DNA from: Lingula anatina
Lineage: Eukaryota > Animalia > Brachiopoda
NCBI GenBank assembly: GCA_051362555.1
Contig: CM120643.1
Span: 6,014,001-6,078,000 of the forward strand
DNA: 64,000 nt
Direction: 5' to 3'
Under the pieces are notes generated by a model. That model saw only the letters and a list, made by a program, of their open reading frames with translations. It was not told where the DNA came from and did not search any database. This document shows positions 1,590 to 34,130 of this stretch, piece after piece. The position numbers were made by a program, and so were the translations under genes. Numbering within the stretch: position 1 is the stretch's first letter; each line of letters starts with the position of its first letter.

Positions 1590-2665
1590 GGTGAGTTGGA
1601 GCAGGGACATAATCCAACAGCTGGATGTTGGCCACCGACTTTACTTCCCAGCTGTTCTAACAGCGAAGTTGGCCTGCAATGTTAAAGTGATCAGTCTCCT
1701 ACGAGAAAGGGGCCTAAAAAACAGCAGCTCACAAATACAAAAGAAGCTTCGTTACAACATACAGACGCCTGGCTCAGAAAGATAGTCCAGTATGGGTCGG
1801 ACTGCGACGCCTTTCACAAAGCTTCCCAGATAGGTCTCATTGCCCCCCCCAGTATTTGTTCAGCCTCTGCCCAGAGAGCATGTTCCCCAACCAAGATGGC
1901 TGATGCATGCATATGCCATTGATGTCATGGACTGGCTTCCTGAACTGAAAGCAGTGCTGACAAGTCAGTTTGGAAATATTTTAAAGCTTGATTCAACTAA
2001 AAAGGTTGTCAAGAAACTAGCTGGTGCGGCAGCCAAGACCGCTAATAGCCTATATGTGGTGCACAAATGTAGGAAATGAGCACAGTCAAGTCCTGAACTT
2101 TGTAATGACTGCAGGTGAGGGCCACGACTTGACCAAAATGGTGCAGAGGCTGGTTGCTAGGTACAGGGATGCAGGAGAACACCCTCCAACTTTGGTATAT
2201 GTGGATAGAGACTGTTGTAGTAAAACATACCTGAAGAAGATTTTTCACGGTTGGGAAGATACAGTCATCAGGTTGGACATCTGGCATTTTATGAGGCGCC
2301 TATCTACTGGCTGCACCACTGATTCCCACCCTCTATACGATGTCTTCATATCCACCCTCAGCAAGTACATCTTCACCTGAGACAGAGACAACCTCCAGCT
2401 CTTACTTGATGCCAAGGCAAATGAACTGCATCCATCGACTGACAGAGATAAAAATATGAAACGACTGACTTGGAAAGAGCTTGCTTTGCATTGCAGATGT
2501 ACCACCAGGGGTGAGAAAGAAACATTAAATCTAATTAACCAGCTGCTGGCAGCCTTCAGTGATCCTGCAGGACGGGACACACTTGGTTAAACACAGAAAA
2601 AATTACGGAAATGTGGGAAAGCCAAAAGAAACACGTGAAATGTCTCATGTGCAAGAACAGGTACA
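1590..2665 (+). pseudogene. Frameshifted DDE transposase fragment (DUF6729-like, DxxH class)
   Basis: Overlapping ORFs join to ...FPAVLTAKLAC...LKLDSTKKVVKKLAG...WCTNVGNE...LVYVDRDCCS...IRLDIWHFMRRL. Several frameshifts and stops. Superfamily uncertain. Confidence 0.7.
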
Positions 2666-2993
2666 AGAACAGTCTAGTCTCTTGGTAAGAATAGATATTT
2701 TTCATTTTTTCCAGTTCCTTACAGTTACAGTTACACTTTCAACACTCAAATATGAAGATTTTTTCCCTTTTTATTAGTTCATGCAATATGGATCAGCGTG
2801 ACATATGTATGTCTCTGTCCATCTTGTGACTGTGGGCATTTCATATATAACATCAGTACCTAAAATTACCAAAAAGAAAGCGTGTTTTGCTGTTTGATGC
2901 CTGTATATTTGCAAGTTTTGCCACACAATAATATAATTACAAAAACTAGTTATTATTTTTATAATAATGACATTTATTTTTTCCATTTGATAG

Positions 2994-3881
2994 AAAGCCA
3001 CAGTTGCTGAGATAGGAGGTATCAACATGTGTGATCACACTAAAAAGGCCATGCAAAGGTAGGACAAATACTAATATATATGCATTTACTTAATTTTTTC
3101 CTGTGTTTAATGTGTAAAATACATATCTGAAACCTAGAACTCAGGTATAAGTTATGATCAAACCTTTATGGAATGATAACTAATACTTTTACACTTGACA
3201 CATTTCTGTCCATGTTAGTAAATTAATTACATTACAAAGTCGAACCTACATGTGTATAGCTACGTTATACTGGTTTGTTTGGCAGTATAAACCTTTTTAT
3301 CAGAATTTTAAAAATAAGTGCAGGTTATTATTCCAATTTTTTGGACTTTTCTTGATCAAACCAAGACATTTTATTCAATATATCCTTTATTTTATAAATA
3401 TTATTTGTAGGTGTATGACCAACAGAGTCATGGCTGGGATGAATTTTTCAGGGAAGAAAAATAAATTTCCGTTTGGGCACAGCAACTTCTTTAAGGTGAT
3501 CAAAGGTAATTAAATTAATGTTGCATTGTGTTTTACATTTACTGCTGTAATTTGTGCCTGATTTGATTTTTGTAATAAACTTATCAGCTATCTATCAGCT
3601 CCAGTTTGGGCAGCTAAGCCTAAAAAAATAGTTCTTACATTTTGCACCCTAGTTGGAATTTAACACCCAATCTTAACCTCATTCTTAGAATATCCCTCAA
3701 TGAACTATGATAGGCACGCCTGCCAGCGTACGTTCGATACATATATGCTTACATTTCTACTTCACTTTTTTTTCCAGATGTCATGATGTCAAGATATAGC
3801 TGTACAGAGAAGGAAGTCACCGACAGCATCGTTAACTATCTAAAATGGGAACCAGAAAGAAAAGATGGGAGGTGGAAGAAA
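2994..3881 (+). pseudogene. Spliced DUF4806 (BEN-like) transposon accessory gene fragment, 3 exons
   Basis: AG/GT-bounded exons 2994-3058, 3411-3505 and 3778-3881 splice in frame to KATVAEIGGINMCDHTKKAMQRCMTNRVMAGMNFSGKKNKFPFGHSNFFKVIKDVMMSRYSCTEKEVTDSIVNYLKWEPERKDGRWKK. Confidence 0.65.
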
Positions 3882-4119
3882 GTAACAATTAGGAACTTGA
3901 ACTATTATTATGGCCTTGTGCTGGACATTGCTACAATACTTACAGTTATATCTCTGAACTGTGGAGTTATCAGATTGCACTCATATCTGTCGTGTGTATA
4001 TGAACCTCATCTTCTACGTCTTGTTGCACAAAAATTGACAAAGATTTATCAAAGCAACCACGACAGCCATTTCTGGCTCTCTAACTTAACTGCACATGCG
4101 TCAAGGTGTATGAATCTTC

Positions 4120-4233
4120 TTGATTCAACGTTGACTTTTCAATGTTGATTCAACGTTGACTTTTCAACGTTGACACAAATTTCCATTTTCAAATATAAAT
4201 TCAACGTTGATTCAACGTTGTGTGCCTGCTGGG
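4120..4233 (+). mobile_element. Right terminus of an EnSpm/CACTA-like (CCC-ended) element with subterminal repeats
   Basis: Repeated ttgattcaacgttga motifs ending in gtgcctgctggg. A related terminus lies at 19670-19791. Confidence 0.55.
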
Positions 4234-6019
4234 TCATGGTTTGTAAAAAGAGATTAAACATTTCAATTGTTTTCAGTTTACCATACCAAATGCTGTGTAA
4301 TTTCAAATAGCATAGAATTTTGGTTCATTATTGTGAAGGTTTTATATGTAGTTTCATTACAGACTGAAGTTTACACCTGAAATGAAGTTGCAATTTCACA
4401 GCCAGCTGTTTCTTTTTTTATTGGCCATTTTTTTGTGTCACATACGTAACTGCCAGAAGTAATTTAATTTGAATACGTTCCAGGAAATGCACACATTTTT
4501 TATCTTTACTGAGAGTGTAACCTATTTATTTGACATACAATAAATGATATAAGTTTATTTAATGTTTTTTTTTGTCTTATCAAAATATGATTTTATGCCC
4601 GCGACTAACATTACATTTAATAAGCTACAAAAGTAGTAGAAATGTACTCTTTTCTATTGTTAAAAGACATAAAAAGGTGTTAAAAAGGTGTACAAAATTT
4701 AGCCATTTTCATACATTTTATATATCGAAATACCACATGTTCGTAGAAAAAAGGGTATCTAAAAGTTGATTTTGTGACACGAAAAAGGTAAGGGAAATGG
4801 GCCATTCATATGCCTTTCAACATGCAAAAGTCTTAAGAATGTTGATCTTTATAATGCTTTTTTACAACCCCACAAATGAAATTTGTGCAAAATTGTTGGT
4901 AAATAATAACTTTTGCTGACTTGTCGCATCATAATTTTTAGGATGATGAGTCTTATTGAATATTTGATATATAATTTTTATCCCTAAAGCCATAACATTT
5001 AATACAGGCAACAATTTGCTACATTGTTATTATTATTAAAACAATTAGGATAGAGGGGTTATATATTAAAAGCGGCCTTGTTTGGCCAAATCACAAACAA
5101 TCAATACTCCTTGTTGCCTTCTTTCTTGCTATGAATGAGACCATAAAAGTTTGTGGTACACTGAGATGGAGGAGACATAAAGAACATGTGTATGGCTCTC
5201 TAACTCCAAGAATGACACAGGGATATGAACATAAAGAAATACCACAATTACAGGTCCTTGAACCAGATGGAACCCTCATGGACACAAAAAAATTTAAGAA
5301 GGACCTAGAAAAGTGTAAAATGGAACTGACCCAGGATAACACACAGATTTTTAGATAATGGGATAATTTTTTAAATCAAGAGAAGACTACAAGTCTTCAT
5401 TTCCTCTACCTCCCACAAATACCTGGCCACTGTTAGATCTACATGTAAGTTATCATATACACCATTGAATTTCATAAATAAGCATTGGTCATTTAACAGA
5501 TTTTTACCATCTTCATTTGCCTAAAGACCCATGTATATGTAAGGTTTGCTGTGTTTGTTGTGTTAGCTATGATTGCGTTCGGTGTGTATCGTGTATGTTC
5601 GTATGTGTACGTGGAGGTCAAGGGTTGAAAGACCGCGCCCCATAAAATTTGATTTCCACCTGAGAGTCGGACGGAGATGCAGGTTGAATAACTGAAATAG
5701 GTATTCCAGTGAGCTTGCAGGTAAGTTTAACTATATTTAATAAAGGACCAATCCATAGTTTAAATTCATACATTTCTAAATTAATATATTTATTTTTTAT
5801 GGTGTGTTTGGCATTGTTATATTTTTATTTCTTTGTTCTGTCTTTCTTGTCTTTCGTCAGTGTAAATTTTGTATATGTAATTGTTTAAAATTAATTTGTT
5901 TTTATTGCTCTTGCAGATATTTGGAGATATTTGGAGATATTTGCAGATATTTGTACAATAACAATAAAGAAACATCAACCCGAGCTATCGGTCTGTTACA
6001 TATATGAAAGAAAACAACT

Positions 6020-6400
6020 ACCCAATATGACATTATAAGTAAATGTGGTGGAGAATATTTGTATTTTGGGATTGTTCACAGCATTTGCCATCAAATCCAA
6101 GACATTCAGCACATATCTGACAATTTTGTTCTTAGCCTCCAGATAAATGTAGATGGGCTACCTCTGTTTAAGAGTACTAGTCACAATTTCTGGCCTATAA
6201 TGGGGAGAATTGTAAATATTCCTAACCAATACAGTAAGCCTTTTATCATTGCATTATATTTAGGCACAGCAAAGCCCATTGATATCAATGAATATTTTCA
6301 TGATTTTATTGATAAATTTAAACAAATCCAGGGAGGTTTCCCCTGTCATGGGAAACGTTTATTTATTGCTATCTATTCATTCATTTGTGATACACCTGGA
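6020..6400 (+). pseudogene. Mirage/EnSpm (CMC)-type transposase fragment
   Basis: GGEYLYFGI...LQINVDGLPLFKSTSHNFWPIMGRI...PFIIALYLGTAKP...FICDTP. Homology stops abruptly after ICDTP. Confidence 0.8.
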
Positions 6401-6454
6401 CTTGCATCTTCCAAATTCCTGTCATGGAGCTGATGGTGCGCTGAGTGAAGAGAT

Positions 6455-6630
6455 GCTTTCTCCACAGAGACAAGCTGGTGGTCAGAATTGTAGTCTATTT
6501 GCCATTGCAACAGCTGTGTGTTTAGCTATAACAAGGTTGACCTGTATAACATTGTTTTCAGTTAAGAGCAGATGAGAAGACACTTGTATGAGAGTTTTTG
6601 TAGAGGGAAACTGGTAATGTTTCCATGTGA
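6455..6630 (+). pseudogene. Ulp1-like (C48) protease C-terminal fragment of TE origin
   Basis: PQRQAGGQNCSLFAIATAVCLA...QMRRHLYESFCRGKLVMFP, resembling the QxxxxDCGLFAIA catalytic-Cys motif. Frameshifted. Confidence 0.6.
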
Positions 6631-6899
6631 GGTTAAGACCCAATCAGTAAAGGTGACATATATTACTATATCAAAAGAGTAGTTTTACAATTATTACATG
6701 GTTTTAAAATAAAAAAAATACAGGTGGACCTCTAAACATCTAATCTAATATTTTGGCAATTATTCTAAGACAAATGTGACATTAATGTTGAAAAAGATGT
6801 CCTAACTGACCCTGCTGTAGAAACCCATCACTGGCACTGGACATAGAGAAAATTCTAAATGACAATATCCCTGGGTCTAGTGGACAGCCAGGCCCTGTA

Positions 6900-6930
<31 letters not shown>

Positions 6931-6949
6931 CCAGACCATTGTCCAGTTT

Positions 6950-7173
6950 GGAATAGACTTGCATCTTGCAAGACTATACAGAAGAGATATGCTGGCTTTG
7001 GATGATGAGGAACACAATACTAATGCAAACAGATACCAAGCCTACAGGCTATTCACGCTATGGGCACATGGTCGTTTGCATTGGGAGCTGGCAATAGACC
7101 CGTAATTCCATCTTGCTCTGTGTGGGCAATAAGAGACAAGTTCCCAGATCCATATGGACAATATCGGGGGTAA
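6950..7173 (+). pseudogene. KolX / P2RX7 intracellular (ballast)-like domain fragment, Kolobok accessory gene
   Basis: [51 protein letters not shown] with one frameshift at ~7080. Confidence 0.8.
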
Positions 7174-7239
7174 ACAGTAGAATTACAGCTGAAGTTTCAA
7201 GTCAATGAAATGGAGAGATGACTGTACTGGTTAAAAATC

Positions 7240-7357
7240 CTAGATATGCAGCGCCTTGCATTTGATGTAGCAGAAAATGCACAGGTCGCCCATTCATTCA
7301 ACAGAGAGTTATGGATGGCAGGGTAAGACTGGGTGCAAGGGTTTCTCTCTCCTCACG
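7240..7357 (+). pseudogene. pogo/Tigger-type CENP-B HTH fragment
   Basis: [37 protein letters not shown], matching the LA...H.FN....AG.DW..GFL.RH pattern. Confidence 0.7.
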
Positions 7358-7539
7358 GCTGTAGCATTCGTCAGTCTCTGTGTTAATATGGACAGAAGTT
7401 GGAAGTTAGTTTCGAGAGAGAGCTTTACTGTTTGATCATAAGTTTAGCTCTTTATTCTGTCCATGTTTGACATTTTCCTGTCTTTTCAAGGCATAGAATT
7501 AGAAAGTAGAATTGTGAAAGAAACGGAATAAGATTAAGT

Positions 7540-7720
7540 TCCAGCTGAGTGAAGCCATGACAATCAAAGGGGAAGATGGTTCAGTTTAGTTACAAGCCAA
7601 ACACGTGGTTTTTACCACTGAAGAAGCTTTCCAGCAGTACAAAGAATTATTTCCTGATGATAAAATTGGCCTCACATTGTTTCAAGCTTTAGTTCCCCCA
7701 AATCTTAAAAAAATCTCTGA
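7540..7720 (+). pseudogene. DNA-transposase N-terminal fragment (Sola-like)
   Basis: FTTEEAFQQYKELFPDDKIGLTLFQALVPPNLKKI, resembling the 'F...P..KIG.S.F..L.P..V' motif. Family assignment tentative. Confidence 0.4.
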
Positions 7721-8529
7721 AACAGGCCATCACATGGTTCCAATACTTTACTTACATGACGTCCAAACCAGATTATTATCGATGGCTGGGGAAATTGAAA
7801 AAAATCAATCTGTTCTCAACATAGCATCTTTTGACCATGTCAAATTTAATTTTTAGTTTACAGACCCTTTTGCTTGGAATGTAATTATTTTTTATGTGTT
7901 ACTAATAATGAATTTTATGAGTTAAAGAAGGAAATGTCAGATATGGCCTTGTGGTTAGAATGTCTGCCTCCGGAGTGGGAGGACATGGGTTCAACCCTGT
8001 CTGGGCACATTCTGTCTGGTTGTCAGCGACGGTTTATCCTACCCCCTCCTGTTTTTTAACTGTTCTAAAGAGGAGCAGTTTGCCACCAGCTGCACATACA
8101 TAAGCTGGGCAATTTTTACTGTCCAGCCTACTCTTCCACAGTACCATCCACGGTTCATGACCCAACAGCAGCGGCACGATCTACCATTCCTAAACATGAT
8201 TTACGAGTCACAGTTCAACGACACAGCAGCAGCGGCACCATATACCTTTCCTCAGCTCAGCAGTACCTCGTCTCAGCAGCCCACAGCTCAGCGACTGACA
8301 GCAGCGGCACGATTTACCATTCCTCGATACGATATACTGGCCACGGTTCAACAACCCAGCAGCAGTGGCACGATCTACCGTTCCTTGGCTCAGCATCAGT
8401 GCACGATTTACCTGCCAATGCTCAGCGACCCGACAACATTTGATATATTTTAATCTTCTAATTCTATCCTCCACTTAATAACTTCATTTATAAACATTGG
8501 TAATTGAATCATTACGGACAGCATATTGA

Positions 8530-8725
8530 AGAGAATTGGAAACATTAAATTTTTGTTTAGTTAATGGAAAAAATTAGTTATCTTATTGATTTTCAGAGTC
8601 AACAATATAGGTCTTTGGAGAAAAGATGTGAAAGATATTAGGAAGAAGTGGTCGGATTTTTCGAGCTGCACCAAAAAGAAGGACACGGAAAGAAGGAAGA
8701 TTCAAAAGACTGATGGTGGTGGGGT
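8530..8725 (+). pseudogene. Myb/SANT-like DNA-binding fragment (Harbinger accessory ORF type)
   Basis: RVNNIGLWRKDVKDIRKKWSDFSSCTKKKDTERRKIQKTDGGG. Confidence 0.7.
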
Positions 8726-8729
8726 CTAT

Positions 8730-9085
8730 CAAATAATGTTGACTCCCCGGCAAAAAGTTAATATGGAAGACATAAAGAAAATAGGCAAACATAAGGTATT
8801 TTTCCAGAGGAACCCAAAAAGTGTGCTGTCAAAGATAAAACAACCAACCCTGCCTTTTTTCACCCCAGATGAGCAAAACATGCACCTTGATTTATAAAGG
8901 CAAGTGTCACTTTTCATAGATCACCCCCTGCCCCTGTGGTCAGGTTTTATGCAGGTACTTCACCCTAAAACAAACATAGGCGTCGGTGCTCCTCTTTTTC
9001 TCCCCATGATTGACCTGAAGCCTTCTAGCCCTACCTGTGTACGGTCTACTTAGGAGTATCTGTGTGACATTGCAGAGAGGCATGA
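8730..9085 (+). pseudogene. Academ-type transposase fragment
   Basis: ...HPLPLWSGFMQVLHPKTNIGVGAPLFLPMIDLKPSSPTCVRSTLEYLCDIAEEH, with P.WSGFMQ and FLPMID..P...TC..STL motifs. Fused directly to the Myb fragment. Confidence 0.6.
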
Positions 9086-9189
9086 AAAAAGGGGGGAAAT
9101 TTTTTGGGCTATATTGAGAAGTAGTTACAGTAACTTGGGTTAAACAATGAATAAACTATGAAACTATTAAAAACATAAACGCCCTCTAC

Positions 9190-9511
9190 AGATCTTATCA
9201 CTGCTATTTTACACCATACACAATTCCTACTCTCAGACTATCCAACCTCTGAACCAATGAAACCTCAGGCAAGTGAACCTTTAGACTAGCAAACCTTTGG
9301 AACAGCTGGTCATTTGCATTATCAAACTATCAGACCAATGAACCTTCTGACTATTGAACCTTTTAAACCATTGGATCTTGGCATCATCAAACGATCAGAC
9401 CAATGAACCTTCTGACTATTGAATCTTTTGAACCATTGGATCTTGGCATCATCAAACTATCAGACCAATGAACCTTCTGACTATTGAACCTTTTGAACCA
9501 TTGGAACTTGG
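9190..9511. repeat. Dispersed repeat containing a 65-bp minisatellite (copy 1)
   Basis: Unit ttggcatcatcaaactatcagaccaatgaaccttctgactattgaaccttttgaaccattggatc, ~3 copies. The same lead-in and unit recur at 27340-27841. Confidence 0.85.
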
Positions 9512-10691
9512 CAGGGTTCTCCCCAGGCCTTTATAGCGTATCAGCACCGGTACGCATCTTTTTTTGCCGATACGCTCCTTTTTTTGCCGATACGCTTCTT
9601 TGAACTCCGATACCCTTGAAGAGTTGTGTGTGCCCAACGCCTTTATTCCTGACAGTCGTGACGCAAACGACTTGTGTAGGCCCTACGTACTTGAATCTCT
9701 TGTGTGCACGTTAGGTTGTTTATTTTTATTCTGCCTGGCGCAGTAATACAAGTATTAACATCTCGTGTTGAGGGCGCGGGGCCTGCGCACTGACAAGTTT
9801 TGAATATCAACATCCGCTATTTTCCCGCAAAATTTGGTCATGCACGTGGGTTATGTCGTAACGATTTCATGAGACGCAATCTTGATTACTCGCGAAATCA
9901 GGTCAGCTTCAGTCACGTGTACAGTATATGGCGATTTCATCGGATGTTTCTCTTCACGGTTTGATGGTGGATCGAAATGCCACTCCCAAAACGTGTGCAC
10001 TCGCACAATATTACAGACTTCTTTCACGCAGTTCAAAGATGTGAAAAACAAGCACACGTGGAGCGCACATTTACTGACATCGTTGACACTGCTGTGTCGG
10101 ATAATATCACGGCTGTAACAGTAACAGAAGGCAACAGAAAATTGAAAAAGGATCCGAAAAGAAGAAAAACGGGCGTCGACCCCACATGGCTTACTACGTA
10201 TGCATGGCTGCAGGTGACTGCTGACGAGAAGGGTGAGTTTTTATCATGTTAAAATGTCTTAAACAATTGAATATCAGTATAACCTTAGTCTACTCTAGCA
10301 TATACCCTAGCACGAAAATTCATGCGTTAGCACTCGTATTGACGATTCTGATATGTACTGGCTGTGCTAGTATCATTGGTTTTAGATTTTAATTAGGCTA
10401 AATTATAACGTAAGATAAATGTCATGGGCATTTTTGTCAGTGAGGGCAGTTTTCCCATTTTAGTATTGGTCATGCACAGAGCTGCAGTTTTTTATGTATT
10501 TCAATTTTGTATGCAAATAAATATTTCTTGAAATGATTGTTTTGCATGTAATTGCACCCTTTTTGCATGAAATAATAAAAAATTTTCTTTCGGAGGGCAC
10601 GTCCTCAGCCCCCCCCTCCCCCCCCCCCCCCCCTCGGTACTCTCGCGTAAAAAAACATAAGGGCTATTTTCAAATCCTGGGGAGAACCCTG
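9512..10691 (+). mobile_element. Internally deleted hAT-like element with 16-bp TIRs
   Basis: cagggttctccccagg (9512-9527) / cctggggagaaccctg (10676-10691). Retains a first-exon fragment KRRKTGVDPTWLTTYAWLQVTADEKG|gt (ZNF862/TTF-zinc-finger-like). Flanks gaacttgg and ctgtgtgt do not form a TSD. Confidence 0.75.
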
Positions 10692-10820
10692 CTGTGTGTT
10701 CAAAATATTCATGCAAATTTTATGTAGAACCAAGTGGCCGTAGACAATTGAAGTCTGGAAGCTTGCCCACTAAGTTTATGCCTCAAAAGACGGTTGAAAC
10801 TCCAAAACCACCACCTCGAT
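10692..10820 (+). pseudogene. THAP domain C-terminal fragment
   Basis: VCSKYSCKFYVEPSGRRQLKSGSLPTKFMPQK, a degenerate VCS.HF...LK.G.vPT.F. Confidence 0.6.
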
Positions 10821-11422
10821 CTAAAATCTGTGGAAAATGCAGTCATAGAGTGCAACTCGCACAAGTCTGGTGGTCACAAGTTCATAACACGGAGGGCAAT
10901 ACAAATCTCGCGGGAGTTGGCATTCTACTTTCTCCACTTCTATGATGTAATCAAGGACTTGAAGAAGAACATGACAGCAGAAGAGTTCCAAGTCCACTGG
11001 TCACCTACAAAAAGGCATACCTGATGTACTAAAACGTAAAGGGGGAGTCTCTAGCTATTTTAATAATATCTTTAAAATGATTCTAGATATTTTGTGCATA
11101 TTTACAGAACTGTTTTTTTTTTTACAACGCCAATTTGCATTTAGAAGCTTATGAGATCTAACGCCTTACGAGCACATTAACGTATATGTCACAAATTGCC
11201 TAAATACTGTCTTTTGGAAGATTCTCTCAAAAAACATCTGAAATGTTAAGGCATTTGTAGAAATGCCAAGGGCTTTCTTTTTTGGACTATTAAAATTGTT
11301 TATGTACCTGCACTTGAAATACCCCACCTAAGTGTATTGATTCAAGTTGTACATAATCACTTAACAAATTTTATAGACTGAAAGTTCTTATAAATCCCCC
11401 TCTTTTTCGTTCGTTTTAACAG

Positions 11423-11595
11423 GTCTGCTTGTGTCATCCAGCACTGTACGGAGATTTAGAAAGAAGGTTGGCTGGGTGAAAAGTGGGAAAGGCTACTGTC
11501 AACTTGTAAGGTTGATCAACTGTCAGAAAAGAGAAAACTGGTGCTGGGAGGCCCTGGAAGTGGAAGACAAATTTGAGGACGTTGTGTTTTTTTTG
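11423..11595 (+). pseudogene. Tc1/IS630-like transposase exon fragment
   Basis: AG/GT-bounded exon: VSSSTVRRFRKKVGWVKSGKGYCQLVRLINCQKRENWCWEALEVEDKFEDVVF. Confidence 0.7.
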
Positions 11596-11741
11596 GTAAG
11601 CAACAATCCACAGATCTGCATTCAAAATACAACATATGTGTTGTTGATTAATATTATATAAATATTATGGAATGGTGCAATTTGTAAGATAAGTGTTATT
11701 TTAAAACGAATACCATAATTGTTCATATCTTTATATTGCAG

Positions 11742-12182
11742 ACTGGAAGGTTTCAACCAAAAAGATCAGATGGCAGCAAAGAAGAGACTCTTCATTTGGA
11801 CACTTAGAGTTTGATGGGATGCCCTTTATGACCTTAAGTGAACTTATCTTGGACTGTCGCCACGGGCATGACAGGAATAAAGCGCTTAAGGCGAAATTTG
11901 CTGCTGCTAAAGCTGAAAAGGTTGCTAAAATATATACGTTATAGGGCTTTAATTTTGTTAACATTGGTGTTAGAGCCTAGTCTTAAGGAATGAATTTTTT
12001 TGCATGGAAGGGAGGAGGGGGACAAAAGACAAAAGCCTACAAGTACTAAATTTTGTTTTTAGATAAACGATCAGGAGTCTGACTTTGTATTTTCAAAATG
12101 CCAGAACTTCCTAGTGTCTGTGAAGTTTAGTTGTCCCGCGCAGATATGCCTTTTGGAAATGGTTAAATTTCCAGAATACAAG
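11742..12182 (+). pseudogene. CARF/ALS2CR8-like domain fragment (MULE-associated), 2 exons
   Basis: Exons 11742-11920 and 12063-12182 splice in frame: EFDGMPFMTLSELILDCRHGHDRNK...VKFSCPAQICLLEMVKFPEYK. Confidence 0.65.
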
Positions 12183-13435
12183 GTAAAAAAATATAATTTA
12201 ATATAATTTTTTCAAGTATGATGAAAATGATTTTCTTATCCCACATTTGTAATTTACAGTTCATGCAACAACTTCCGGTGATTAGACAAGAAATTATCTA
12301 TTTCATGCTCGAATACTGTTGTCTTTATGTGAAGATTTATTACTCCATGTCCATACTCCTCCAAATTATTCCTTGCAGCATTTGCCTTGTTACTGATAGT
12401 ACATACTGAACCTAAGATGTTAATTTCTCTTTCTGCTGTTTAATTTTTTTTCATATGAGATATATAACATGCTTTGTTTTTTAGGTAATTGAGTTATCTG
12501 GATATTATGATTAGCAACAGTGTTAAGAAGGTAACAATTATAAGAAAGTGCAATAAAATGACAACATTAAATGTCACTTGTGAAAAACGCCAAGTAGCTG
12601 AATATGCTTTAAAGAAAGAACTTTAAATTATTTTTAGCCATTAGCCCAAAGACAAAGAATAAAAATTGAGCCTGAAGAGAGAAGACATGTACCCTGACCA
12701 CATGACCACATGACTCCTCAGTGGTTCAAAGGCAGTTTTCTGTGCAGAATGTTTTCACCTTCACAACACAGTGTCCACACTGTGCACTCCTACAAGATAC
12801 AGTCCTTCAACTTATGAAATATGGAGATGGTGATGGGTTTGTAGAACAAACTGTTGAACAACTCAGGATTCATATCTCATTTTTTGGTAGCCTTTATTTC
12901 ACATCATACGTACAGGTAAGACAAGTAACAGTGTACGGTGTATGATGTATGGTGAAACTAAAATTTAATGAAAAAAAAACACAATGAATAAAAATAAAAA
13001 TGATAATACTAACAATGGAGTAGGCCTACAATTAATGGTGAAGGCACAATTTATGATTCTATAATGATTCTATAAAGTAAAGGCACAATTTATGATTCTA
13101 TAATGAACAAATAAATATTTAAATAATAATAACTTACTCGAATTGCAGCCACATAAACTTGGGGATAATCCTGATGTTCACAAAAAAAAAAAAAAATGTA
13201 TACATATACAATGGGCTTGCAAGAGGGTAAAGAGGACAATGCTGGTATGTGGCATGCTGCCTATAGAGCATACATTTTTTTTTAAATCTTTTTTTTTTCT
13301 AAATCTGTGTGTTTTGTATCAAGAAGTTTTGGAGTATCATGGAGAAGACAGAGTATCATTGAATGTGGTAACCAATTAGATGGAATATTTTTCAGACCAT
13401 ACTCATACTTTAATTGAATTCTTTTATTTTTTCAG

Positions 13436-14739: not shown

Positions 14740-16053
14740 CTATAAATTAAAGCTGGCAATATCTAAGTTAAGGCAAAAATTGACATTGACGCTGAAGCTT
14801 CAGTTTTGTCATCAAAAATTTACAAAAAGTTGCAAAATCCTCCCAAAAAACTTGGTGATTGTCAAATGCAGTTAGCCAGTGAAAAATCAAAAATCCCTGG
14901 TTTTGTGGTGTCACCAATTTGTATGTGGCACCCATTTAAGATCAAATGTTACTGGGTCATGATATCCTACAATTTCCTGGGACAGTACTTGATTCAAAAG
15001 ATCCAAGCTCTTGTTATTGATCACCATAAAGTCCCAATTCAATCCCAAACAGCAGGCAATAATCCCACCATTGCTCAGGTAAGTCTGAGTAGGGGTATCA
15101 CGGTCCCTCCTAGATCTGTATCTCAGGTCTCTTGTAATATTAAAGCACGTGTAGAAAATTATTACATTGAATTGACAGAGGAAACTGTGTTGATCCCTCG
15201 TAGTATTCAGACTGCCTGTTCTAACCTGGTGATATGCACTGTCAATTCCATAGATTCTTTCAGAAAATTTAAAAGGGGACAGATTATTGCTAGAGCCATA
15301 GAATTTGATCAAATCTTATACGAGATACCCCAAGGTTCTGTTTCTGAAAATTCTACCACCAACCAGACCTGTGACGTGTGCTCTTCTGAGGCAAAGTTTG
15401 ATCTAAGGGGTAAGTGTAATAACACCAGCATGAACTTGATACAGGTAATGCCAATTAAACAACACATGCACTATACACCTGCTTGTTTTGTCAATGAAGA
15501 AGAAGAACATCTAAATAAAATGTTAAAGGCTGGAGTTATTCAAGAATCCACATCTGATTGGGTGTCAGCTCCTGTTTTGATCAGAAAACGTGATGGTAGT
15601 GTACGGTGGTGTATTGATTATTGTGCACTAAACAATGTGACAGTGAAAGACACATTCCCTCTTCCCCTTATGGAAGATTGTCTCGACACTTTGGCAGGAA
15701 ATACTTGGTTCTCTAAAATTGATGCCAACTCTGCTTGTTGGCAGGTTAAAAACAAAACTGCATTTGTGACAAAACATGGTCTATTTGAACATCCTAAAAT
15801 GGGGTTTGGGCTCACAAATGCCCCTGCAACCTTTTCCAGGGTTGTCAATCTGTTAATGATGGGTCTCACTTGGAAGATAGTCCTGGATGATATTCTGGTC
15901 ATGGAAAAGTCTTTTACTGATCATGTCACCAATCTGACAGAAAACCTTAGAGAGATTATGAAAATATGGGATAAAGGTCAAGGCAAGAAAATGTTTATTT
16001 TTTTCAGAAAGAAGTTAAATTTTTGGGGAGGGTGGTCTCCAACAATGAGTTGA
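14740..16053 (+). mobile_element. Decayed Ty3/Gypsy pol fragment (protease-RT)
   Basis: KMLKAGVIQESTSDWVSAPVLIRKRDGSVRWCIDY, DTFPLPLMEDCLD, KTAFVTKHGLFE, MGFGLTNAPATF, LDDILV. Internal deletions. Confidence 0.9.
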
Positions 16054-16205: not shown

Positions 16206-17580
16206 GTGGGAAGCACCAAAAAGGCAGCAAGGAAGAGAGTTTGTAGCTGAAATAAATACAGAGGTTTGCCGCTCCCTCAGCATAGAGAGGTCTGTGACAA
16301 GTGCCTATCATCCTCAGACCAATGGTCTGGATGAGAGGACAAATCAGACACTGAAGACTCGATTGAGCAAGCTCATTAATGAACACCAGAATGACTGGGA
16401 TACTTATTTGGAGGATGTGGCAATCAGGACACAAAAGCAAGCATCCACAAAGTTCACCCCTTTTTTCTAATGTTTGTGAGGCACCCTAGGTCTCTGAGAG
16501 AGGTAATTCTAGATTTAAAATTTTAATGATTAAGTAGACAACATAAATTTTGGAACATTTTATTATTATTTTCTGACATCTCAGTAATAGGTTTGTTACA
16601 TCACTGAAACTGTGTTTGAAAAGCAGTCTATGTGTAGCCAAAATGTGTAATAGATATGATATGCTTTGGTCTTGGCATTTATATCAAACCTATTTAATCT
16701 TTTAAATCATGCAGACCTCTTTTAGATTATTAGTTATTTCTATATATGCTTAAATGGCTGCACTACAAATATTTTATTTACCTATTTTTCATTCTTCTGA
16801 TTATTTTACTTAACAGGCTGTCTGCTAGTCATGATACTGATCTTGTCTTTACCTTAAATGAAGTGGGAAGCATGAAACATTACTCCTGTGTTCACAAAAA
16901 TAACATGATTAATTTTAAAGAGGTTTTCTAATTTCAATTGTGATTTCCATTTTTAGATGAATGCCAAAGATGGTGAAAGTATTGAAGCCATTTCTGTAAA
17001 TGATGAAGTTCTAGAAGACATGGTCAACCACAGAGAGGCACTGCTAGATGTCACCAATAAAGTTGTAAGTACAAAGACACACATAATGCGCTTCATTAAG
17101 GGTTCTAGCATGTTACAGTTGTATCAAAATTTTCTTTGAATATGAAATACTTTACTTGTTTTATGACTGCCTGTTATATTTGTGTCTCTAATAAGCAACT
17201 GTGCATTCATTACTAGGACATAGTATTTTAATGTACAGACACAGTGTACGTAGCCATCACCTGCCTCTGTCATGGTGCACTTTTTTCATTGTTACTTCAC
17301 TAACCTAAATACTGATATAGCTTTTTGCCTCAAAGTTATTAGTTAATTTGATGCCTGTATATGTGCCATCTTCACTGTCTATATTTTTCTTGTGTTTTTC
17401 TTAGGTACAAGAGAATGTGGAAAAGGCTCAAACAAAACAGAAGGAGAATTTTGCAAAGAGAAAGGCAAATGGCGTCAAATCCTTTGACCTTTCAGTTGGA
17501 GACATGGTCATGAAAAGGGCTATGAAAAACATTGGAAGGAAGGGAGGAAAAATGGAGCATCTGTGGACTGGGCCTTATCG
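16206..17580 (+). pseudogene. Ginger/GIN-type integrase (DNA transposon) fragment with spliceosomal introns
   Basis: Exons 16206-16502 (QGREFV...TSAYHPQTNGLDERTNQTLK...DWDTYL...STKFTPF), 16957-17064 and 17405-17580 (AQTKQKENF...VGDMV...GRKGGKMEHLWTGPY). A Gypsy-like integrase with GT-AG introns is characteristic of Ginger. Confidence 0.8.
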
Positions 17581-18191
17581 GTATGTATTTCTGCCAGAAC
17601 TTTTCTTTTAATGAGTTACTTGCTGCTCTTGATAACACGTGATTTCTGATTTCTAGTACTTCCACCATAATACATGTACATCTTAACACAACAAAACAAT
17701 AATTCAATATCTCAGAAGTAGAGGGGAAGATGTCTCTTGTCCACAGCACAGTGGAGTCTGCACAGCCAATCTACGAGAAGACGACACCATTGGGGACAAG
17801 CTTAACCACTGATGGGGATCGACAGCCGAGCCCAGCTGCATGTGACAATGTTGGAATTTTTTGGGACACATGACACTTTACCAAAGCTCTGAAAAAACAA
17901 ATAGAAAAAGCACCATTTTCTGGTCAAGTGTCTCCAGGAAAAACAAAATACACTAGAGACAAAATGCAAAAATGTTTTGCTCAGTGCATAGCAATATGCG
18001 CTGCTATTCTGAATTTGATGCTTGCTTTAGAGCAAATAAATAAATAAATAAATAAATAAATAAAGCAAATAAAGGGAACATTTAAGTCATAGTTAAGTCA
18101 TGTTGTCGTCTGAGACAACGTCAGTCATTCCATGTTGTCATCTAATGACCGCGTCATTTAAGTCATAGTTAAGTTAGGTTGTCTTTTAGGG

Positions 18192-18310
18192 ACAACGTCA
18201 TGTTTCACCACATCAGTACACCCTAAGTCCAAGTCATCCTTGGCGAAGATGTCTTGAAATTCACCTAACAGTTTCTCCAATTCACGAGTCTGGTCTTCAT
18301 CCAGGTACTT
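18192..18310 (-). pseudogene. Short Gypsy pol fragment (pre-RT), the only minus-strand coding fragment found in the mosaic
   Basis: Reverse strand reads KYLDEDQTRELEKLLGEFQDIFAKDDLDLGCTDVVKHDV. Confidence 0.75.
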
Positions 18311-19335
18311 GGTGCTTCGATTTCAACAAAAAGAAGGGTGTGAGTCCAAAACTACAGCAAAAATGGACTGGACCATAAGAAGTGGTAGATCGAATTTCAG
18401 ACCTAGTATACCGGATACAGCTTAGCCACAAGCATAAACCCAAAGTCGTGCACTACGATAATTTAAAGTTTTATCACTAACCCCAGAGTTCATGGTTTCA
18501 ATCGACACTTGTAGAGTCTCGACTTAGAGACTTACCTGAGTCGTGCGACGTCATGTATTCTGGATTTTCCATTTTCTGTTGTTGTCTCTAATACACCCCC
18601 CTCCCTTACATACCAGCAAAGTTGTTGGGTCAGCTTTTCAGTACCTCTCTCAGTAACTTACTTCTCTCCTTTCCTAGACATGCCAGACTGTCTGTTCTGC
18701 AAACACGGACCGAAGCAACCGCAAGCGCCATGAAAAGAGCTGCCTTAACTGCTATTGCGGGTTGAAATTTGTTGACAACAGAGTGTTGGTGGAACACTAC
18801 AAAAGAAAACATGCTCAGAAGAAGGAAGAGACGAACCCAGCAGGTCATACTATCCCAGAAGAACCTCCACTGCTAGTAGATGTTACACCTGTCGAGGAGG
18901 CATCCCTCATTCAGTCCCCTTCAACCAGCCCCAGGACATCTGAGAGAAAGCTAAAGGTAGGAACACCCCCTGACGAGTACCCAAGTTCCCTAGATGGTGA
19001 AGAAGACCAGCCAAACAGCAAAGTCCCCAGGAGAGCAGTAAAAGAGGGAGAAGTAGAGATGGATATGGTGGCTTTGTTCCAGAGAGTTAGGTGATTGCAC
19101 GAACGAGAGACACGCTACCCTGATGGGAGGCGAGACATAGTTCGAAACTTTTATTTTTAATGAAGAAACTTTTATTTTTAATGAAGAAAAAGAAAACCAA
19201 TAGAGAAAAAGATGAGAAGTTTTACGAATAAAAGGAAGAGAAAAGAAAACGATTAATAAAGTCTTGTTAAACTAAAAACGGGGTCTTATTTTGATTCAGG
19301 AGAATCAAATTTAAAAGGTTGGGGGTAGTGTATAT
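18311..19335 (+). mobile_element. 3' end of a Gypsy element: integrase GPY/F tail, extra ORF, PPT and start of 3' LTR
   Basis: KWTGP*EVVDRISDLVYRIQLSHKHKPKVVHYDNLK (~18360-18480), then ORF 18762-19094, then purine-rich tract aaaaggttgggggtag (19313-19328) followed by tg. Confidence 0.7.
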
Positions 19336-19669
19336 ATATATAACAAAGTCACAGTCAACCTGTCTATCTATAATAGCAGGTTACCAATAGGCCTAACTGT
19401 TAACTCCATCACATTTACAACAACTTATTCATCCCAGTGTTAGCTGACCTTGCAAGGAATTCAGTTTATTGGAATGTATTTCTGAATAAAAAGTTAAGAA
19501 AATTCACTAGTTAACTAAAGACACAAAACAACTGTCACTTTTACTTTAAAACCGTTTTGTCATTATTTTGATAAATTTAGTTACAGTATTGATAAACAAA
19601 GTATCACGTTTTCAATAATTAATATTTTAAATTACAATCTATAAATGCAAGGTTGTGTCATTGACCAAA

Positions 19670-19791
19670 ATACAACGTTGAGTCAACGTGGCTGGATCAA
19701 CATTGATTTTACCTTGAATTTAGGTAGATCAACGGCAATTCAATGTATCAACCTGTTTTCACATTGAACCAAAGCAACTATGCCTGCTGGG
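19670..19791 (+). mobile_element. Second EnSpm/CACTA-like right terminus
   Basis: caacgttgagtcaacg-type repeats ending in tgcctgctggg, related to 4120-4233. Confidence 0.5.
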
Positions 19792-19930
19792 TACTCATTA
19801 CTTCACATTGAACATGTCCACTGTATTTAATGTCACATTTCTATACAAACTAAATATCCTTTCATACAACTCTTGCAGTTTTTTCAAATTTCTAATAAAA
19901 TTCCAACCTTAATTTCTTTCTCTTTCACAG

Positions 19931-21154
19931 ATGGAGACCAAAGAAGTCATTGTAAAAAATGAGGCAACACCACTTAATCAAATGACGGTTACAGATGACA
20001 CAGGCTCAATAACAGTCAATTTGTAGAGAACAGCCACTACATCCCCAGTTAAACCGGGAAGTCGTTTGTCAGTGGAGGGCAACCTCCACTTCAATACATA
20101 TGAAAACCAACTGGTATGCCACGTCAATTCACCAGAAAATGTACAGGTAACCACACATTGAACATCTTTCCTCTTTAACTGTTTTTAAAATAATGCTAAT
20201 AATTTGCTATACTGTTTTTCAAGAAATAATCAACATTATACAAGCATTACAGATTATTCTAATAATTGTCAATTACATTGTTCACTTTTAAAACCAAAGT
20301 CCACACACAGGTCACTAACATATACATATCATGCTTAATTCATAGAAAATCATTATTACTGAGACCACTAAAAACCATTATTAACTTACATATAATAGCT
20401 TTCTATGTTATGATTAAGAATATTTTTACTTATATCATTATTATTCCAGATTCAAGAAAGTGAAATAGAGAAAGCCATCAAGTTATTGGGGATCAGTCAT
20501 GACCAGACAACTCAAGGCTTCCTTTTCTTTACTGAAGAAGAACAAGAATTACATATTTCTTTGGAAGAAGCAAGAAAAATATGGCCACACCCTTCAGAGG
20601 ATGAAATCAGCACAACCCTACCAATGAATATTACATCATGTGCAATAACTGAAGGACAAATGACAGATGTAGCAACACAGGGTAATTGCTGAAATTTTTG
20701 ACTCCCATCATGCCATACCATATACTATTAATACTATAATCAAAATTTATAACTTTCCTTATTTTAATAACTTAATATGAGACGCTAACTGAAACAACAA
20801 TGTAATATGTGCATACATACACAGCTATTGATCCAGTCCTCTGCCTCCTTGGCAGTGCTGTGAAAAAAACTGTTAAAATATACATACAATCCTACATTTT
20901 TTCAAAATGTTCAAACTATGATCATGTACCGCCACATAATGATTTTAAAGCCTCACTCAGAGTTTTCCATTTTTTTATCTTCAATGTTCATTGATATGAC
21001 ACAAACATTATCTTAGCGTATAACAACTGACAGTACCTCTTGTTACTGTTATGCATTTAACTGTAACTTATATTAGCTTTTCATTAATTACACAGATATA
21101 AAACCTTCAGACATAAGCAAGCCCACCATACCAGAGCCAGGTACCTCTGTTTGA
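19931..21154 (+). pseudogene. Spliced OB-fold (RPA/SSB-like) gene fragment, probably TE-borne
   Basis: Exons 19931-20146 (MTVTDDTGSITVNL*RTATTSPVKPGSRLSVEG; tag at the expected Trp), 20450-20681 and 21096-21154 are in frame. Confidence 0.55.
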
Positions 21155-22699
21155 AATAGCATTATGGTAAGCTTGCTTTCTTTTCATTGTAATATAACTG
21201 CTGAATAACACTATATTGCTTCAACTCAAAATCAGCTCTAAGCAAATGAACAAACTGTCTTTTTGGTAAACTTTGCCACAAATTTTTACAGTTTAAAATT
21301 TATTACTTAAGCACATGATCAAATTTGACATGAAATACTTTCATGTGTCAATAATTTCTTATAATTTCTGTTCCTATAATAAAAATATTAACAACAAAAT
21401 TTTCAGTTATATAAATTCGATCCCTTCTATGGTTAAAAATGTTATTTCAAAGATCTTTTTCGTGTCTACTATGGGGTCTCAAACACTCATACTTCTTTTT
21501 TTTTTTTTTCAGCACAAAAAGAAACGGGTTGCTAACTAAAATCAGCACAATCAGTTAATATTTACAGTAGTTTTTTTTTTCTTTTTTATTCTATGAGTCA
21601 TTTATGTAATGCTGATTAATGTATAATATACAAGCTGTACATTATTTTTTTGTCTGATGTTTTTCTCTTCTTTTTTTTTTTTTTTTTTTTTTTTTTTTGT
21701 TAATTATAATTTTGCCTTACTTTAGTTGTAAGTGTACTTTAGATAATGTCTATTACATATGATATTATCTAAAACTCGTTCAGGGTTTTAAGTTTCAATC
21801 AGTACTTCTGCTAATTGTTCAAGATTTTTTTTTATCTAGTTCAGAGTATTAAAATTGCCTTTCTACATTAGTCCACATGTATTGAGGAGTTTCTTGAAGG
21901 TATTTCTTTTAACTAACATTGCAAAAAAAAAATGTTTCATTTCTTTTATTATTATATATCTTAGTTTTATAACTTTTTCATAGTTTAGTTATTGTTATAC
22001 TTTTGATGTTAAAGTAAAATGTGAGTCAGCCTTGCTACTATGTACATATGATATTATCTTAAAGTCATCACAAGTTTTAAGTTTAAATCAGTATTTCTGC
22101 AAATTGTTCAACCTATTTTTCATGTAGTTCAGTATATGAAAATTGCCTTTCCACAGTAGTGCAGTTATTAAAGAGTTTGTTAAAGGCATTTCTTTGATCT
22201 TACAGTGTTAAATATGTAACTTTACATTTTAAGGCAACACATGCAAAATCCATATTCCAAAATCCATTAGCGTATCTACTGATCACAATCTGTGTCCTGC
22301 ATACCCCATGGTGCCACTGAATAAACAAATCACAGATCGTGATCGCTAGATACCACCAGTAGATTTTTTTAAATTTTGCGTGTGAACGAAGCCAAATAGT
22401 TATATATTAGTTTGTTATAGTGTCTTCTTTCTTTATTTTGATATCTTAAAAATAAATGCAATCAAATTACTTCACCCATTAGTCATGTGAGTATTTATCT
22501 ACAGCTAAATTGCCATCATGCTTACACTTTTTCATTTTTAACAGATATAGGACTACTATAAACCTTTCAATTTTCACTTAGCAAAATGCCCAGAGTCTGA
22601 AGCGCAGTTAGTACAACAGCTGAGTCTAAATAAAAAGAGCAGAAAATCCAAAACCAGATTATCTTTTTCATCCTTCTTAAAAAGTTACTGCGACATTAA

Positions 22700-25600
22700 T
22701 TTAAAAACAAGGCAGCAAAGCTGTCAAATGTACAGACAAAAAGCAGGAAATAACTATGCACAAAATAGGCTACTGCCAATTCTGATGCAAAAGTACATAA
22801 TGTTAAACTGCAAATTCAACATCAAATTTTAACAAGACAGCACTGTTCTGACATGGGTTTATTTCCATTTTTAACACTTTTTTAACATAAAACAAAATGA
22901 ACAGTTTACTGCCATTTTTATATGATCAACTAAGAAAATTAATGATATTGGAAAAATATCAATAGAACAGTGTTAAATGTCCAATTTCCTCCATTCTGAG
23001 ATTCTGAACATAGTGGATGATTGAATCTGACAAACTGCAATGATATGAGTTTATTTCCATTTTTGACACTTTATTACACAATACACGATAAAAAGTTTAA
23101 TCATTTTTACATAATCAACTAACAATGTTGTAAAGATGCAGGAAATGTCAAACAAACACTTTTACGTATCTTATTAGTTTAATAATGAGACTGTTAATAT
23201 GCCTAAGAATTGAATCTGAGGAAATGTGAAAAAACAGCACACCTTCTAAAATAATGGCCCGATTATGCTGATTTTCGAACTTGACCTGCATTTTAGTAAG
23301 ATTGACCACTCCTGTGAGTTTAATGGCAATTGGCCTATCGGTTTTTCTTATATTGTGTTTACAGTGTTGCATATATGCTGAAAAATGAAAAAACAGCATA
23401 ACTACTAAAATAGTGGCCCGATCATGCCGATTTTCGAACTTGATCTGCGTTTTAGTAAGATCGATTTTTCCTGTGAGTTTCATGACAACAGGCCTATCGG
23501 TTTTCCTTGAAATGTGTTAACAGTGTTGCATATATGCTGAAAAGTGAAAAAACAGCATAACTTCTACAATAATGGCTCGATCATGCTGATTTTCGAATTA
23601 GACCTGCATTTTATGAATATTCATCAGCTCTGTAAATATACAGCCAAAAAGTAAAATTGACTTCCACTTATCGTGTTTACAATGAAAGTGCACGGCACCA
23701 GTGACAGTGACGGCGACGACAGATGCAGGTGATGGCAATATGTACAGACACATCTGTACATATTTACTGTACTGTTTGAGAACAGTAAGTGACATGGTTT
23801 TTCTTAAATGCTCATCATGGGAGCAGTGTCCAAAACAGATTTTTTTTCAAATTTTGATGCAATATTACATAATGTTTAACAGCATAATGACCATCAATTT
23901 TTAATAATAAAATATTAGCATCATGGATATTCAGAAAATGTGACTAGCAAAGGTCTTCAGGCCCATGGAACTTCAAAGTCACAACTTGAAAATGCCAAAA
24001 TGTAAACAAGACAGCACTGTTCTGAAATGATTTTTTTTTTTTTTTCATTTTTAACAATTTTTTAAACATAAAACAAAATTAACAGGTTACTGCCATTTTT
24101 ATACGATCAACTAAGAAAATTGATGAGATGGGAAAAATATCAATACAACAGTGTTAAATGTCCAATTTCCTCCATTCTGAGATTCTGAACATAGTGAATG
24201 ATTGAATCTGACAAACTGCAATGATATGAGTTTGTTTCCATTTTTGAAACTTTATTACACAATACACAATAACAAGTTTACCATCAGTTTTACATAATCA
24301 ACTAATAATGTTGTAAAGATGCAGGAAATGTCAACCAAACACTTTTACATGTCTTATTAGTTAAACAATGAGACTGTTAACATGCCTAAGAATTGAATCT
24401 GAGGAAATGTGAAACAAGACAGCACTGTTCTGACATGGGTTTATTTCCATTTTTAACTTTTTTAACATAAAACAAAATAAACAGTTTACTGCAATTTTTA
24501 TATGATCAACTAAGATAATTGATGAGATGGGAAAAATATCAATACAATAGTGTTAAATGTCCAATTTCCTCCATTCTGAGATTCTGAACATAGTGAATGA
24601 TTGAATCTGACAAACTGCAATGATATGAGTTTATTTCCATTTTTGACACTTTATTACACAATACACAATTACAAGTTTACCATCATTTTTACATAATCAA
24701 CTAACAATGTTGTAAAGATGCAGGAAATGTCAAACAAACACTTTAATGTATCTTATTAGTAAAATAATAAGACTGTTAACATGCCTAAGAATTGAATCTG
24801 AGGAAATGTGAAAAAACAGCATAACTTCTAAAATAATGGCCCGATTATGCTGATTTTCGAACTCGACCTGCATTTTAGTAAGATTGACCACTCCTGTGAG
24901 TTTAATGGCAATTGGCCTATCGGTTTTTCTTATATTGTGTTTACAGTGTTGCACATATGCTGAAAAAAAGGAAAAAACAGCATAACTATTAAAATAGTGG
25001 CCCGATCATGCCAATTTTCGAACTTGACCTGCGTTTTAGTAAGATTGATTACTCTTGTGAGTTTCATGACAACAGGCCTAACGGTTTTCCTTAAAATGTG
25101 TTTACAGGGTTGCATATATGCTGAAAAGTGATAAAACAGCATAACTTCTACAATAATGGCCCGATCATTCTGATTTTCGAACTTGACCTGCGTTTTATGA
25201 ATATTCATCAGCTCTGTAAATATAAAACCAAAAAATAAAACTGTGTTCCACTTATCGTGTTTACAGTGAAAGTGCACGGCGACGGCATTGCCATCGGCAT
25301 CGGCATCGGCATCGGCATCGGCGACGACAGACGCAGGTGATGGCAATATGTACAGACACATCTGTGTCTGTACATAAAAATAACAAAACAATGTTCTTAT
25401 TTTAGATGTTATTCAACGATCTAAATAATATCAAAATAATGCAATAAAAAAAAGTCACATAAAATATATAGAAACACATAACCTGGCAAGTAGTCATAAT
25501 TCCATTATGTTTATCTTTTTCACAGTGATTCATAACATTGATATATCAATATTACACCAGATGTAAAAATTTTTGGAAACACAAAGATGCCAATAAAAAA

Positions 25601-26232
25601 TATTATTGGTATTTCAACAATTTTCTTACTTTTTATGTACAGACACAGATGTGTTTGAAAAAAAAAACATTTCAGAACACAGTGCTGTCTTGTTTACATT
25701 TTGGCATTTTCAAGTTGTGACTTTGAAGTTCCATGGGCCTGAAGACCTTTACTAGTCACATTTTCTGAATATACATGATACTTATATTTTATTATTAAAA
25801 ATTGATGGTCATTATGCTGCTAACCATTATGTAATATTGCATCAGAATAGAAGAAAACACAATTTTGGGTGCTGCTGCCATTATGACCATTATAGGAAAA
25901 TCATGTTACTTATGATTGCCAAACTTTCAAAAAAAAAAAAAAAAAAAAAAGGACTAAAATGCAGGCTGAGTTGGAAAAGCAGTCTAATTGGCTTCTTTTT
26001 CTGGAAGTTATACATTTTCAAAGTATGAACTTGAACTCCCATGGGCTTGAAGCCTTATGCTTGTTACACATTTTACTTACATTGGTATTACCTTTTGAGC
26101 ATAATTAAAATTTGATGTTCAATTTGCAGTTTAACATAATGTACTTTTGCATCAGAATTGACAGTAGCCTATTTTCTGCATAGTTATTTCCTGTTTTTTG
26201 TCTGTACATTTGACAGCTTTGCTGCCTTGTAA
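22700..26232. repeat. Complex direct plus inverted repeat block (foldback-like)
   Basis: Inverted pairs 22707-22830/26106-26230, 23855-24030/25667-25845 and 25355-25395/25617-25655. Direct copies start at ~22832, 24005 and 24413, with internal ~129-bp tandem units. Confidence 0.8.
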
Positions 26233-26389
26233 TGTTTTGCTTTGCACTTGTAGATAGGACTGAGGAAGAGGATTGTAAGACCCTTAATGGTGAGGGCCAG
26301 ATAGGTATGAAAAGAAAAGGTAACGTCCCTTCCTTGTCACTTAAACGGAGAAAAAAACTTTCATGCAGTAGGTATGACATTTCTTCTAA

Positions 26390-27050
26390 AACAATGTTAT
26401 GTCAAAGACATGCCTGGTTGACTAAAGATGAAATAACCCATGGAATTTTATCAGATATGTTCCCAAAGGTAGATTGAGGGCTTTCATGGTACTTGTGCCC
26501 TAGACCTTGTTAAAAATGGTCATTTTTTATCCAAGCCCACTTCTTCATTATTGCAGGCTTACTCTTTCCAACATTAATAGCAATAATAGCAATTGTGTTC
26601 AAATTCCAGACCTGGCCCCAGATCGAAGGGTAAGATTGCTGAGATCGTTGCCTCATTGCTTTTTGCTCCATCCAAGGAAATTGTATAGGAGCATATTGAC
26701 GTTCAGGAGCAAACTAGCAGAAATGACTGTGGTCTTTCTGACATTGCTAATGCAACGGCTCTGTGCTTTGGAACAAGACCTGGGGACTTCATTTGGGAGC
26801 AAAGGGGAACATCTCAGCAAGTGTTTTGAAAGGGGAAGACTGGAAATGTTCCCATATAGATCAGAGAAACGCCCTCATACAAGACCAAAAATGTCTAAAT
26901 TTCCAATATATTGTCATTGTAGGCAGGTCTATGATAGAAACCAGGACTGGATTGAATGTGAAGACTGCCTGCAATCAAAGTGCATCTGGAAAGGGATCTA
27001 GTCATCTGCCCTGGAGAATCTACAGCAGTCACGTTGTGTCTGTACATAAA
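26390..27050 (+). pseudogene. Ulp1-like protease + PHD finger, TE accessory gene fragment
   Basis: WLTKDEI...VQEQTSRNDCGLSDIANATALCFG...HLSKCFERGRLEMFP...IYCHCRQVYDRNQDWIECEDC, with frameshifts. Confidence 0.75.

Positions 27051-34099: not shown

Positions 34100-34130
<31 letters not shown>

Follow-up and report, generated by a model that had tools for sequence, protein, structure and literature searches.

Transposon gene pieces in the left part of the window

The window analysed here is a 64,000-nucleotide stretch of the Lingula anatina genome. Its left part is a block of ~28 kb crowded with broken transposon gene pieces, nearly all of them on the plus strand. The features are given below from left to right, with the evidence for each in brackets; by-eye calls were made on a six-frame translation of the block. 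Note that the names Mirage and Academ, for the transposase pieces in 5505-6397 and 8590-9086, are provisional.

1585-2640, plus: DUF6729 / DDE transposase piece (DUF6729, E=3e-18; DDE_Tnp_1, E=0.0015)
2994-4233, plus: last exons of a BEN-like accessory gene and the right end of its element (exons, end motif; BEN by eye)
5505-6397, plus: EnSpm/Mirage-type transposase piece with a solo LTR inside (residues 129-270 of a 673-aa relative)
5538-6000, plus: young solo LTR, 463 bp, TG...CA, TATA on both sides (CpG o/e 1.0)
6398-6640, plus: Ulp1-like piece adjoining the Mirage-type piece (by eye; PDB blank)
6930-7340, plus: Kolobok KolX piece, then a pogo-like piece (P2RX7_C, E=6e-8; pogo by eye only)
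7548-7725, plus: N-terminal DDE transposase piece, presumably Sola2-like (relatives P0058, P0061 and P0124, E 3e-7 to 1e-4)
8590-9086, plus: Myb/SANT piece fused in frame to an Academ-like transposase piece (Myb_DNA-bind_5, E=0.0034; transposase relatives, E=4e-31)
9170-9511, no strand assigned: 65-bp tandem-repeat element, copy 1 (self-comparison)
9512-10691, plus: young TIR element, 1180 bp, with TIRs at either end but lacking a TSD; its first exon lies on plus, and we take it to be hAT-like (TIR pair; CpG o/e 1.02)
10700-11020, plus: THAP-like piece and a second, unnamed piece (by eye; PDB blank)
11423-12182, plus: CaRF-MULE transposase gene, 5' exons (ALS2CR8, E=6e-7)
12480-14320, plus: four unassigned coding-like pieces, of which one contains a 33-bp repeat (by eye only)
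14767-16053, plus: Gypsy protease-RT piece, 428-aa open frame with internal gaps (RVT_1, E=2e-8)
16206-17580, plus: Ginger-like integrase with introns, three exons (rve_3, E=2e-4; PDB integrases, E=5e-5)
18161-18322, minus: Gypsy pre-RT-like piece, the sole minus coding piece, adjoining the integrase tail (by eye; no Pfam or PDB match)
18330-19330, plus: Gypsy integrase tail, extra ORF, purine tract and LTR start (Integrase_p58_C, E=2e-10; purine tract then TG)
19931-21166, plus: OB-fold-like gene piece, three exons, GT-AG introns (SSB Pfam match, weak, E=0.012)
21520-26250, no strand assigned: non-coding repeat block, tandem duplication and inverted copies, breaking the array (no Pfam TE match)
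26260-26990, plus: THAP-like and Ulp1+PHD pieces (by eye; PHD PDB match weak, E=0.02)
27324-27841, no strand assigned: 65-bp tandem-repeat element, copy 2, zero CpG left (89% to 9170-9513, same orientation)

The polarity of the block was measured by a strand-blind Pfam scan of 711 stop-free segments from both strands. Of these, 519 lie in 1-28.7 kb; the other 192 lie elsewhere in the window, where the satellite stretches at 36.6-39.5 and 43.3-50 kb were skipped. At E<0.005, ten block segments matched TE-type families, corresponding to seven pieces (DUF6729/DDE_Tnp_1, P2RX7_C, Myb_DNA-bind_5, ALS2CR8, RVT_1, rve_3 and Integrase_p58_C), and all seven lie on the plus strand (p=0.016, or p=0.03 if the RT and the integrase tail count as one element). 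No minus-strand segment of 1-28.7 kb matched at this cut-off; block segments of at least 40 aa number 150 on plus and 168 on minus. The sole other block matches, RHS and MBD on a 33-bp tandem repeat, were taken as artefacts, and no non-TE Pfam match above noise was found that would indicate a host protein gene inside the block. The 192 segments outside it gave a single TE match (zf-RVT, 57 kb).

In addition, homology searches, made with plus-strand queries only, backed three more plus pieces: the EnSpm/Mirage-type, the Academ-like and another DDE transposase piece. This makes 10 of 10 tool-confirmed pieces on plus, eight of them of DNA-transposon type and none an env; the single minus piece was identified by eye. 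The labels pogo, THAP, Ulp1, hAT, BEN and that of the minus Gypsy piece are likewise by eye, and PDB searches with the Ulp1-like, THAP-like, minus Gypsy and 14098-14322 pieces were blank. Pfam gave nothing extra for 15 read-through frames of 3.3-11.1 kb, Rfam gave no matches, and the three matches of a metagenome scan with an LTR word were all discarded as chance. The RVT_1 match covers 125 residues spread over 176 profile positions. KolX corresponds to the P2X7 C-terminal fold (PMC9587614), and introns as well as Ulp1/PHD domains are known from Ginger transposases (PMC2836005).

Altogether, the array is real and non-random. In a list made partly by eye, 36 exon or coding pieces fill ~44% of the block when the 21.5-26.2 kb insert is left out of the count; that insert is non-coding, has inverted copies and departs from the plus polarity. 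The many unrelated transposon genes and strong plus bias described by the initial annotation were both recovered, and its Mirage-Ulp1, Myb-Academ and RT-Ginger junctions were located where it had placed them. Its figure of 19 of 20 on plus is borne out as a bias but was not reproduced as a count, several labels being by eye only. The pieces are mostly non-redundant, as it held, apart from two duplicated ones; their lengths run from ~100 to 1700 bp, some being 1-1.7 kb with introns, longer than the 100-400 bp it gave for most. An unassigned coding-like piece at 12786-12851 is a direct copy of 783-848 (88% identical); the array may start left of 1590 or extend beyond the window.

Signal words were also counted. 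The donor words GGTAAG/GGTGAG occur 13 times on plus and once on minus in 1400-21500, with ~7 expected on each (a post hoc count, picked from 6 motifs in 6 regions), and a composition-only coding test gave five plus against one minus (p=0.22, underpowered). Minus-strand AATAAA is missing from the first 3.5 kb (0 vs 2 expected, P=0.11), but over 1400-21500 it was seen 29 times against 21 expected, so a global depletion of polyA signals on the minus strand was rejected. The enrichment of splice and polyA words on plus, together with the in-frame Myb/Academ fusion, would agree with a plus-strand transcript that joins the pieces as sense exons, acting as a decoy or a ping-pong partner. We regard this as highly improbable: the words came with the transposon genes, stops and shifts abound in the pieces, and no plus promoter was seen in the left part of the window.

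Ends, introns and CpG content of the pieces

Several inserts retain their own ends: the solo LTR with its 4-bp duplication, the TIR pair at 9512/10691, and element ends at 4233 and at 19791, the latter marked by an end motif upstream of the OB-fold-like piece. The solo LTR is nested in the Mirage-type piece, where it parts residue 139 from residue 141 in the numbering of the relative; the orientation of the LTR was assigned from plus splice sites and an AATAAA near the 3' end. GT-AG introns are retained in the BEN-like, CaRF-MULE, Ginger-like and OB-like pieces, and since the introns are retained, the pieces are DNA copies. Other junctions are abrupt. The match to the Mirage-type relative ends at ~6400, and the Academ-like piece is without the conserved upstream motif of its relatives, the Myb piece occupying that place.

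These results go against two further points of the initial annotation, that the fragments are without their own termini or TSDs, and that they resemble an acquired, spacer-style catalogue. The first was not borne out, given the solo LTR and its flanking TATA copies, the TIR pair and the two further element ends. The second, an acquisition array of spacer type, was rejected: self-BLAST found no repeats between the pieces, a TSD, TIRs and an LTR start are present, and the lengths of the pieces vary widely. Intact-ended inserts, a TSD, retained introns and no inter-piece repeat together make ordinary insertion with subsequent deletion the more likely origin.

Judged by protein identity (89% and 83%), at least two pieces have long relatives in Lingula. 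For the Mirage-type piece, this is LOC106163773 of L. anatina (673 aa; 89-90% identity, the next match being at 40%), and the piece's relative P0006 carries Transposase_21. For the CaRF exon, it is LOC106175477, also of L. anatina, a MULE transposase of 1075 aa with ALS2CR8+MULE+SWIM, at 83% identity along 47 aa. The hAT and THAP pieces, queried together with these two, gave no relatives. Taking the two Lingula relatives as the starting state, the pieces differ by 10 C>T/G>A changes against 1 in reverse, 10 transversions and 2 multi-base changes.

CpG content gives a rough age order of the insertions. Both intact-ended inserts, the solo LTR and the TIR element, face plus and have a CpG o/e of 1.0 and 1.02, whereas the neighbouring eroded pieces are at 0.09-0.34; block-wide, most eroded pieces are at 0-0.5, and a few short ones reach 0.86. 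This bears on another possibility, that the block is a single composite element of the Helitron/Helentron or Pack-TIR type with captured, co-oriented gene fragments. Retained introns would agree with capture at the DNA level, and the two co-oriented 65-bp-repeat elements, which we assume to be Helentron-like, could be module ends. However, self-BLAST found no enclosing terminal repeats in the window, there was no Rep/helicase match, the pieces differ in CpG age and an LTR with its TSD is nested among them, all of which makes a composite element improbable.

A predicted minus-strand promoter and the candidate piRNA source

To the right of the interval covered by the initial annotation, at 28.2-30.0 kb, we predict a promoter and a spliced leader, with the minus-strand start at ~29.7 kb, aimed into the array and antisense to the pieces:

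29695-29960, minus: predicted promoter, CpG-rich (ETS-like words at 29954 and 29703, E2F-like word at 29881; CpG o/e 0.91)
29530-29700, minus: predicted leader exon 1, 5' end uncertain (171 nt; GT donor; GC 46% vs 36% in the next intron)
29014-29279, minus: predicted leader exon 2 (266 nt; AG/GT ends; acceptor score 7.1; GC 43% vs 25% in the next intron)
28505-28685, minus: predicted leader exon 3, with the following acceptor at 28201 (181 nt; AG/GT ends; GC 44%)

The promoter interval has two of the four ACCGGAWGT words and one of the two E2F-like words of the whole window, under provisional definitions of both motifs. The predicted leader has three GT-AG introns, and its longest ATG ORF is 53 aa; its exons were called by eye, with only one of six splice sites above a crude score threshold. 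As weak evidence, the open frame of exon 3 had no Pfam match and no homologue among 20 candidates.

In support of a boundary here, the CpG content steps up sharply, from 15 CG/94 GC in 26250-29550 to 97 CG/107 GC in 29551-32850 (p=8e-10). The whole of 29.55-35 kb is CpG-rich (149 CG/179 GC); part of it consists of repeats, which may be young. Gene-body methylation is usual in non-vertebrates (PMC8330077). The pattern fits a long-lived, methylated transcription unit that starts at ~29.7 kb and still gains co-oriented inserts, although any methylated transcription unit would also fit, and TE methylation alone could contribute to the CpG loss.

Taken together, the one-way array of decayed transposon genes is probably a uni-strand piRNA source locus. 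The predicted promoter at ~29.7 kb would drive a short, spliced, non-coding leader and then a transcript antisense to nearly all pieces. Elements would arrive by ordinary transposition, with antisense copies being kept; deletions would take off their ends and join neighbouring pieces, and gene-body methylation would erode CpG with age. Finally, cleavage of the precursor would supply PIWI guides that target related, active families. PIWI pathway genes have been reported from nearly all Lophotrochozoa (PMC11114477). The candidate uni-strand cluster proposed by the initial annotation is made more likely by the predicted promoter and spliced leader, the CpG step and the two Lingula relatives; its spacer-style part was given up.

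The polarity, the donor-word asymmetry and the CpG loss could also be explained without small RNAs. In that case, a minus-strand non-coding transcript or long intron would have been purged of sense insertions, which add splice and polyA signals, leaving antisense relics without functional piRNAs. We hold this to be unlikely: it does not account for coding pieces of so many families being packed so densely, and the window's two other CpG-poor units contain a single TE coding match, sense to the host gene.

Both of these units lie further right. Region 35000-52200 is CpG-poor; within a 193/589-bp tandem array, an exon-like block on the minus strand recurs 11 times, and the single copy translated has stops in all frames. 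It is possibly a repetitive non-coding gene with its promoter near 52.2 kb. Inside the tandem array, 39520-43270 is a CpG-rich element with long inverted ends, internal 40-bp repeats and no Pfam match. A plus-strand gene at 52280-59000 has short repeated exons of ~54-57 nt encoding acidic/charged peptides; a YY1-like word lies at 52284, in perhaps a bidirectional promoter. In an intron of this gene, in sense, is a LINE 3' end (57056-57943; zf-RVT, E=3e-11, 295-aa open frame). Two copies (~70-75%) of a 1.5-kb non-coding repeat occupy 32851-34515 and 60185-61657.

The unit at 35-52 kb suggests a further source of transcripts, since it is upstream, CpG-poor and carries repeated minus-strand exon-like blocks that point the same way. 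The block could then make piRNAs by read-through from it, as in the downstream-of-gene type, without a promoter of its own. The CpG-rich 29.55-35 kb between them, and the motif cluster and leader at 29.7 kb, speak against read-through, and we think it very unlikely.

The proposed piRNA source yields exact predictions: the start, the splice junctions, the strand and the methylation edge. More tentatively, and with slightly less than even confidence, the sequence may be read as a brachiopod's compact, promoter-driven immune archive. Of 15-20 transposon families, most of them DNA transposons, pruning would have left short coding pieces in antisense, and the CpG decay would tell in which order they arrived.

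Comparison with known piRNA clusters

The origin and pruning of piRNA clusters are known mostly from flies, mosquitoes and mammals. No brachiopod cluster was found among the papers listed for Lingula and piRNA or in a lophotrochozoan RNAi survey (PMC11114477). If our reading is true, the locus would count as the first brachiopod piRNA cluster whose anatomy is defined, and it would indicate a flamenco-type selection on cut-and-paste elements.

As occurs in Drosophila flamenco and flam-like unistrand clusters, TE remnants would lie antisense to one spliced transcript with a discrete promoter, which is predicted here (PMC10643416). In flamenco, sense inserts are described as rare near the promoter; here the lone minus piece is 11 kb from the predicted start (PMC10643416). 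However, in flamenco env-bearing Gypsy elements drive the bias, the loci are very long and piRNAs have been shown (PMC10643416), whereas the Lingula block, known from sequence alone, is dominated by DNA-transposon and accessory genes in short pieces. With 8 of 10 pieces of DNA-transposon type and no env seen, assignment to the strict flam-like class, that of the env-bearing Gypsy bias, was rejected.

Outside Drosophila, the flamenco-like EVE cluster of Aedes aegypti is also a single unidirectional cluster of foreign-sequence pieces, but, as reported, these are viral and not transposase genes, and no viral piece was identified in the Lingula block (PMC7161354). The piRNA clusters of Lymnaea stagnalis and Crassostrea gigas, defined by small-RNA reads where the Lingula block is defined by its letters, are likewise enriched in Gypsy, DNA transposons (Kolobok, hAT) and young families (PMC6128900). 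The dominance of DNA transposons is, according to the same account, already known for lophotrochozoan (snail) piRNA clusters (PMC6128900).
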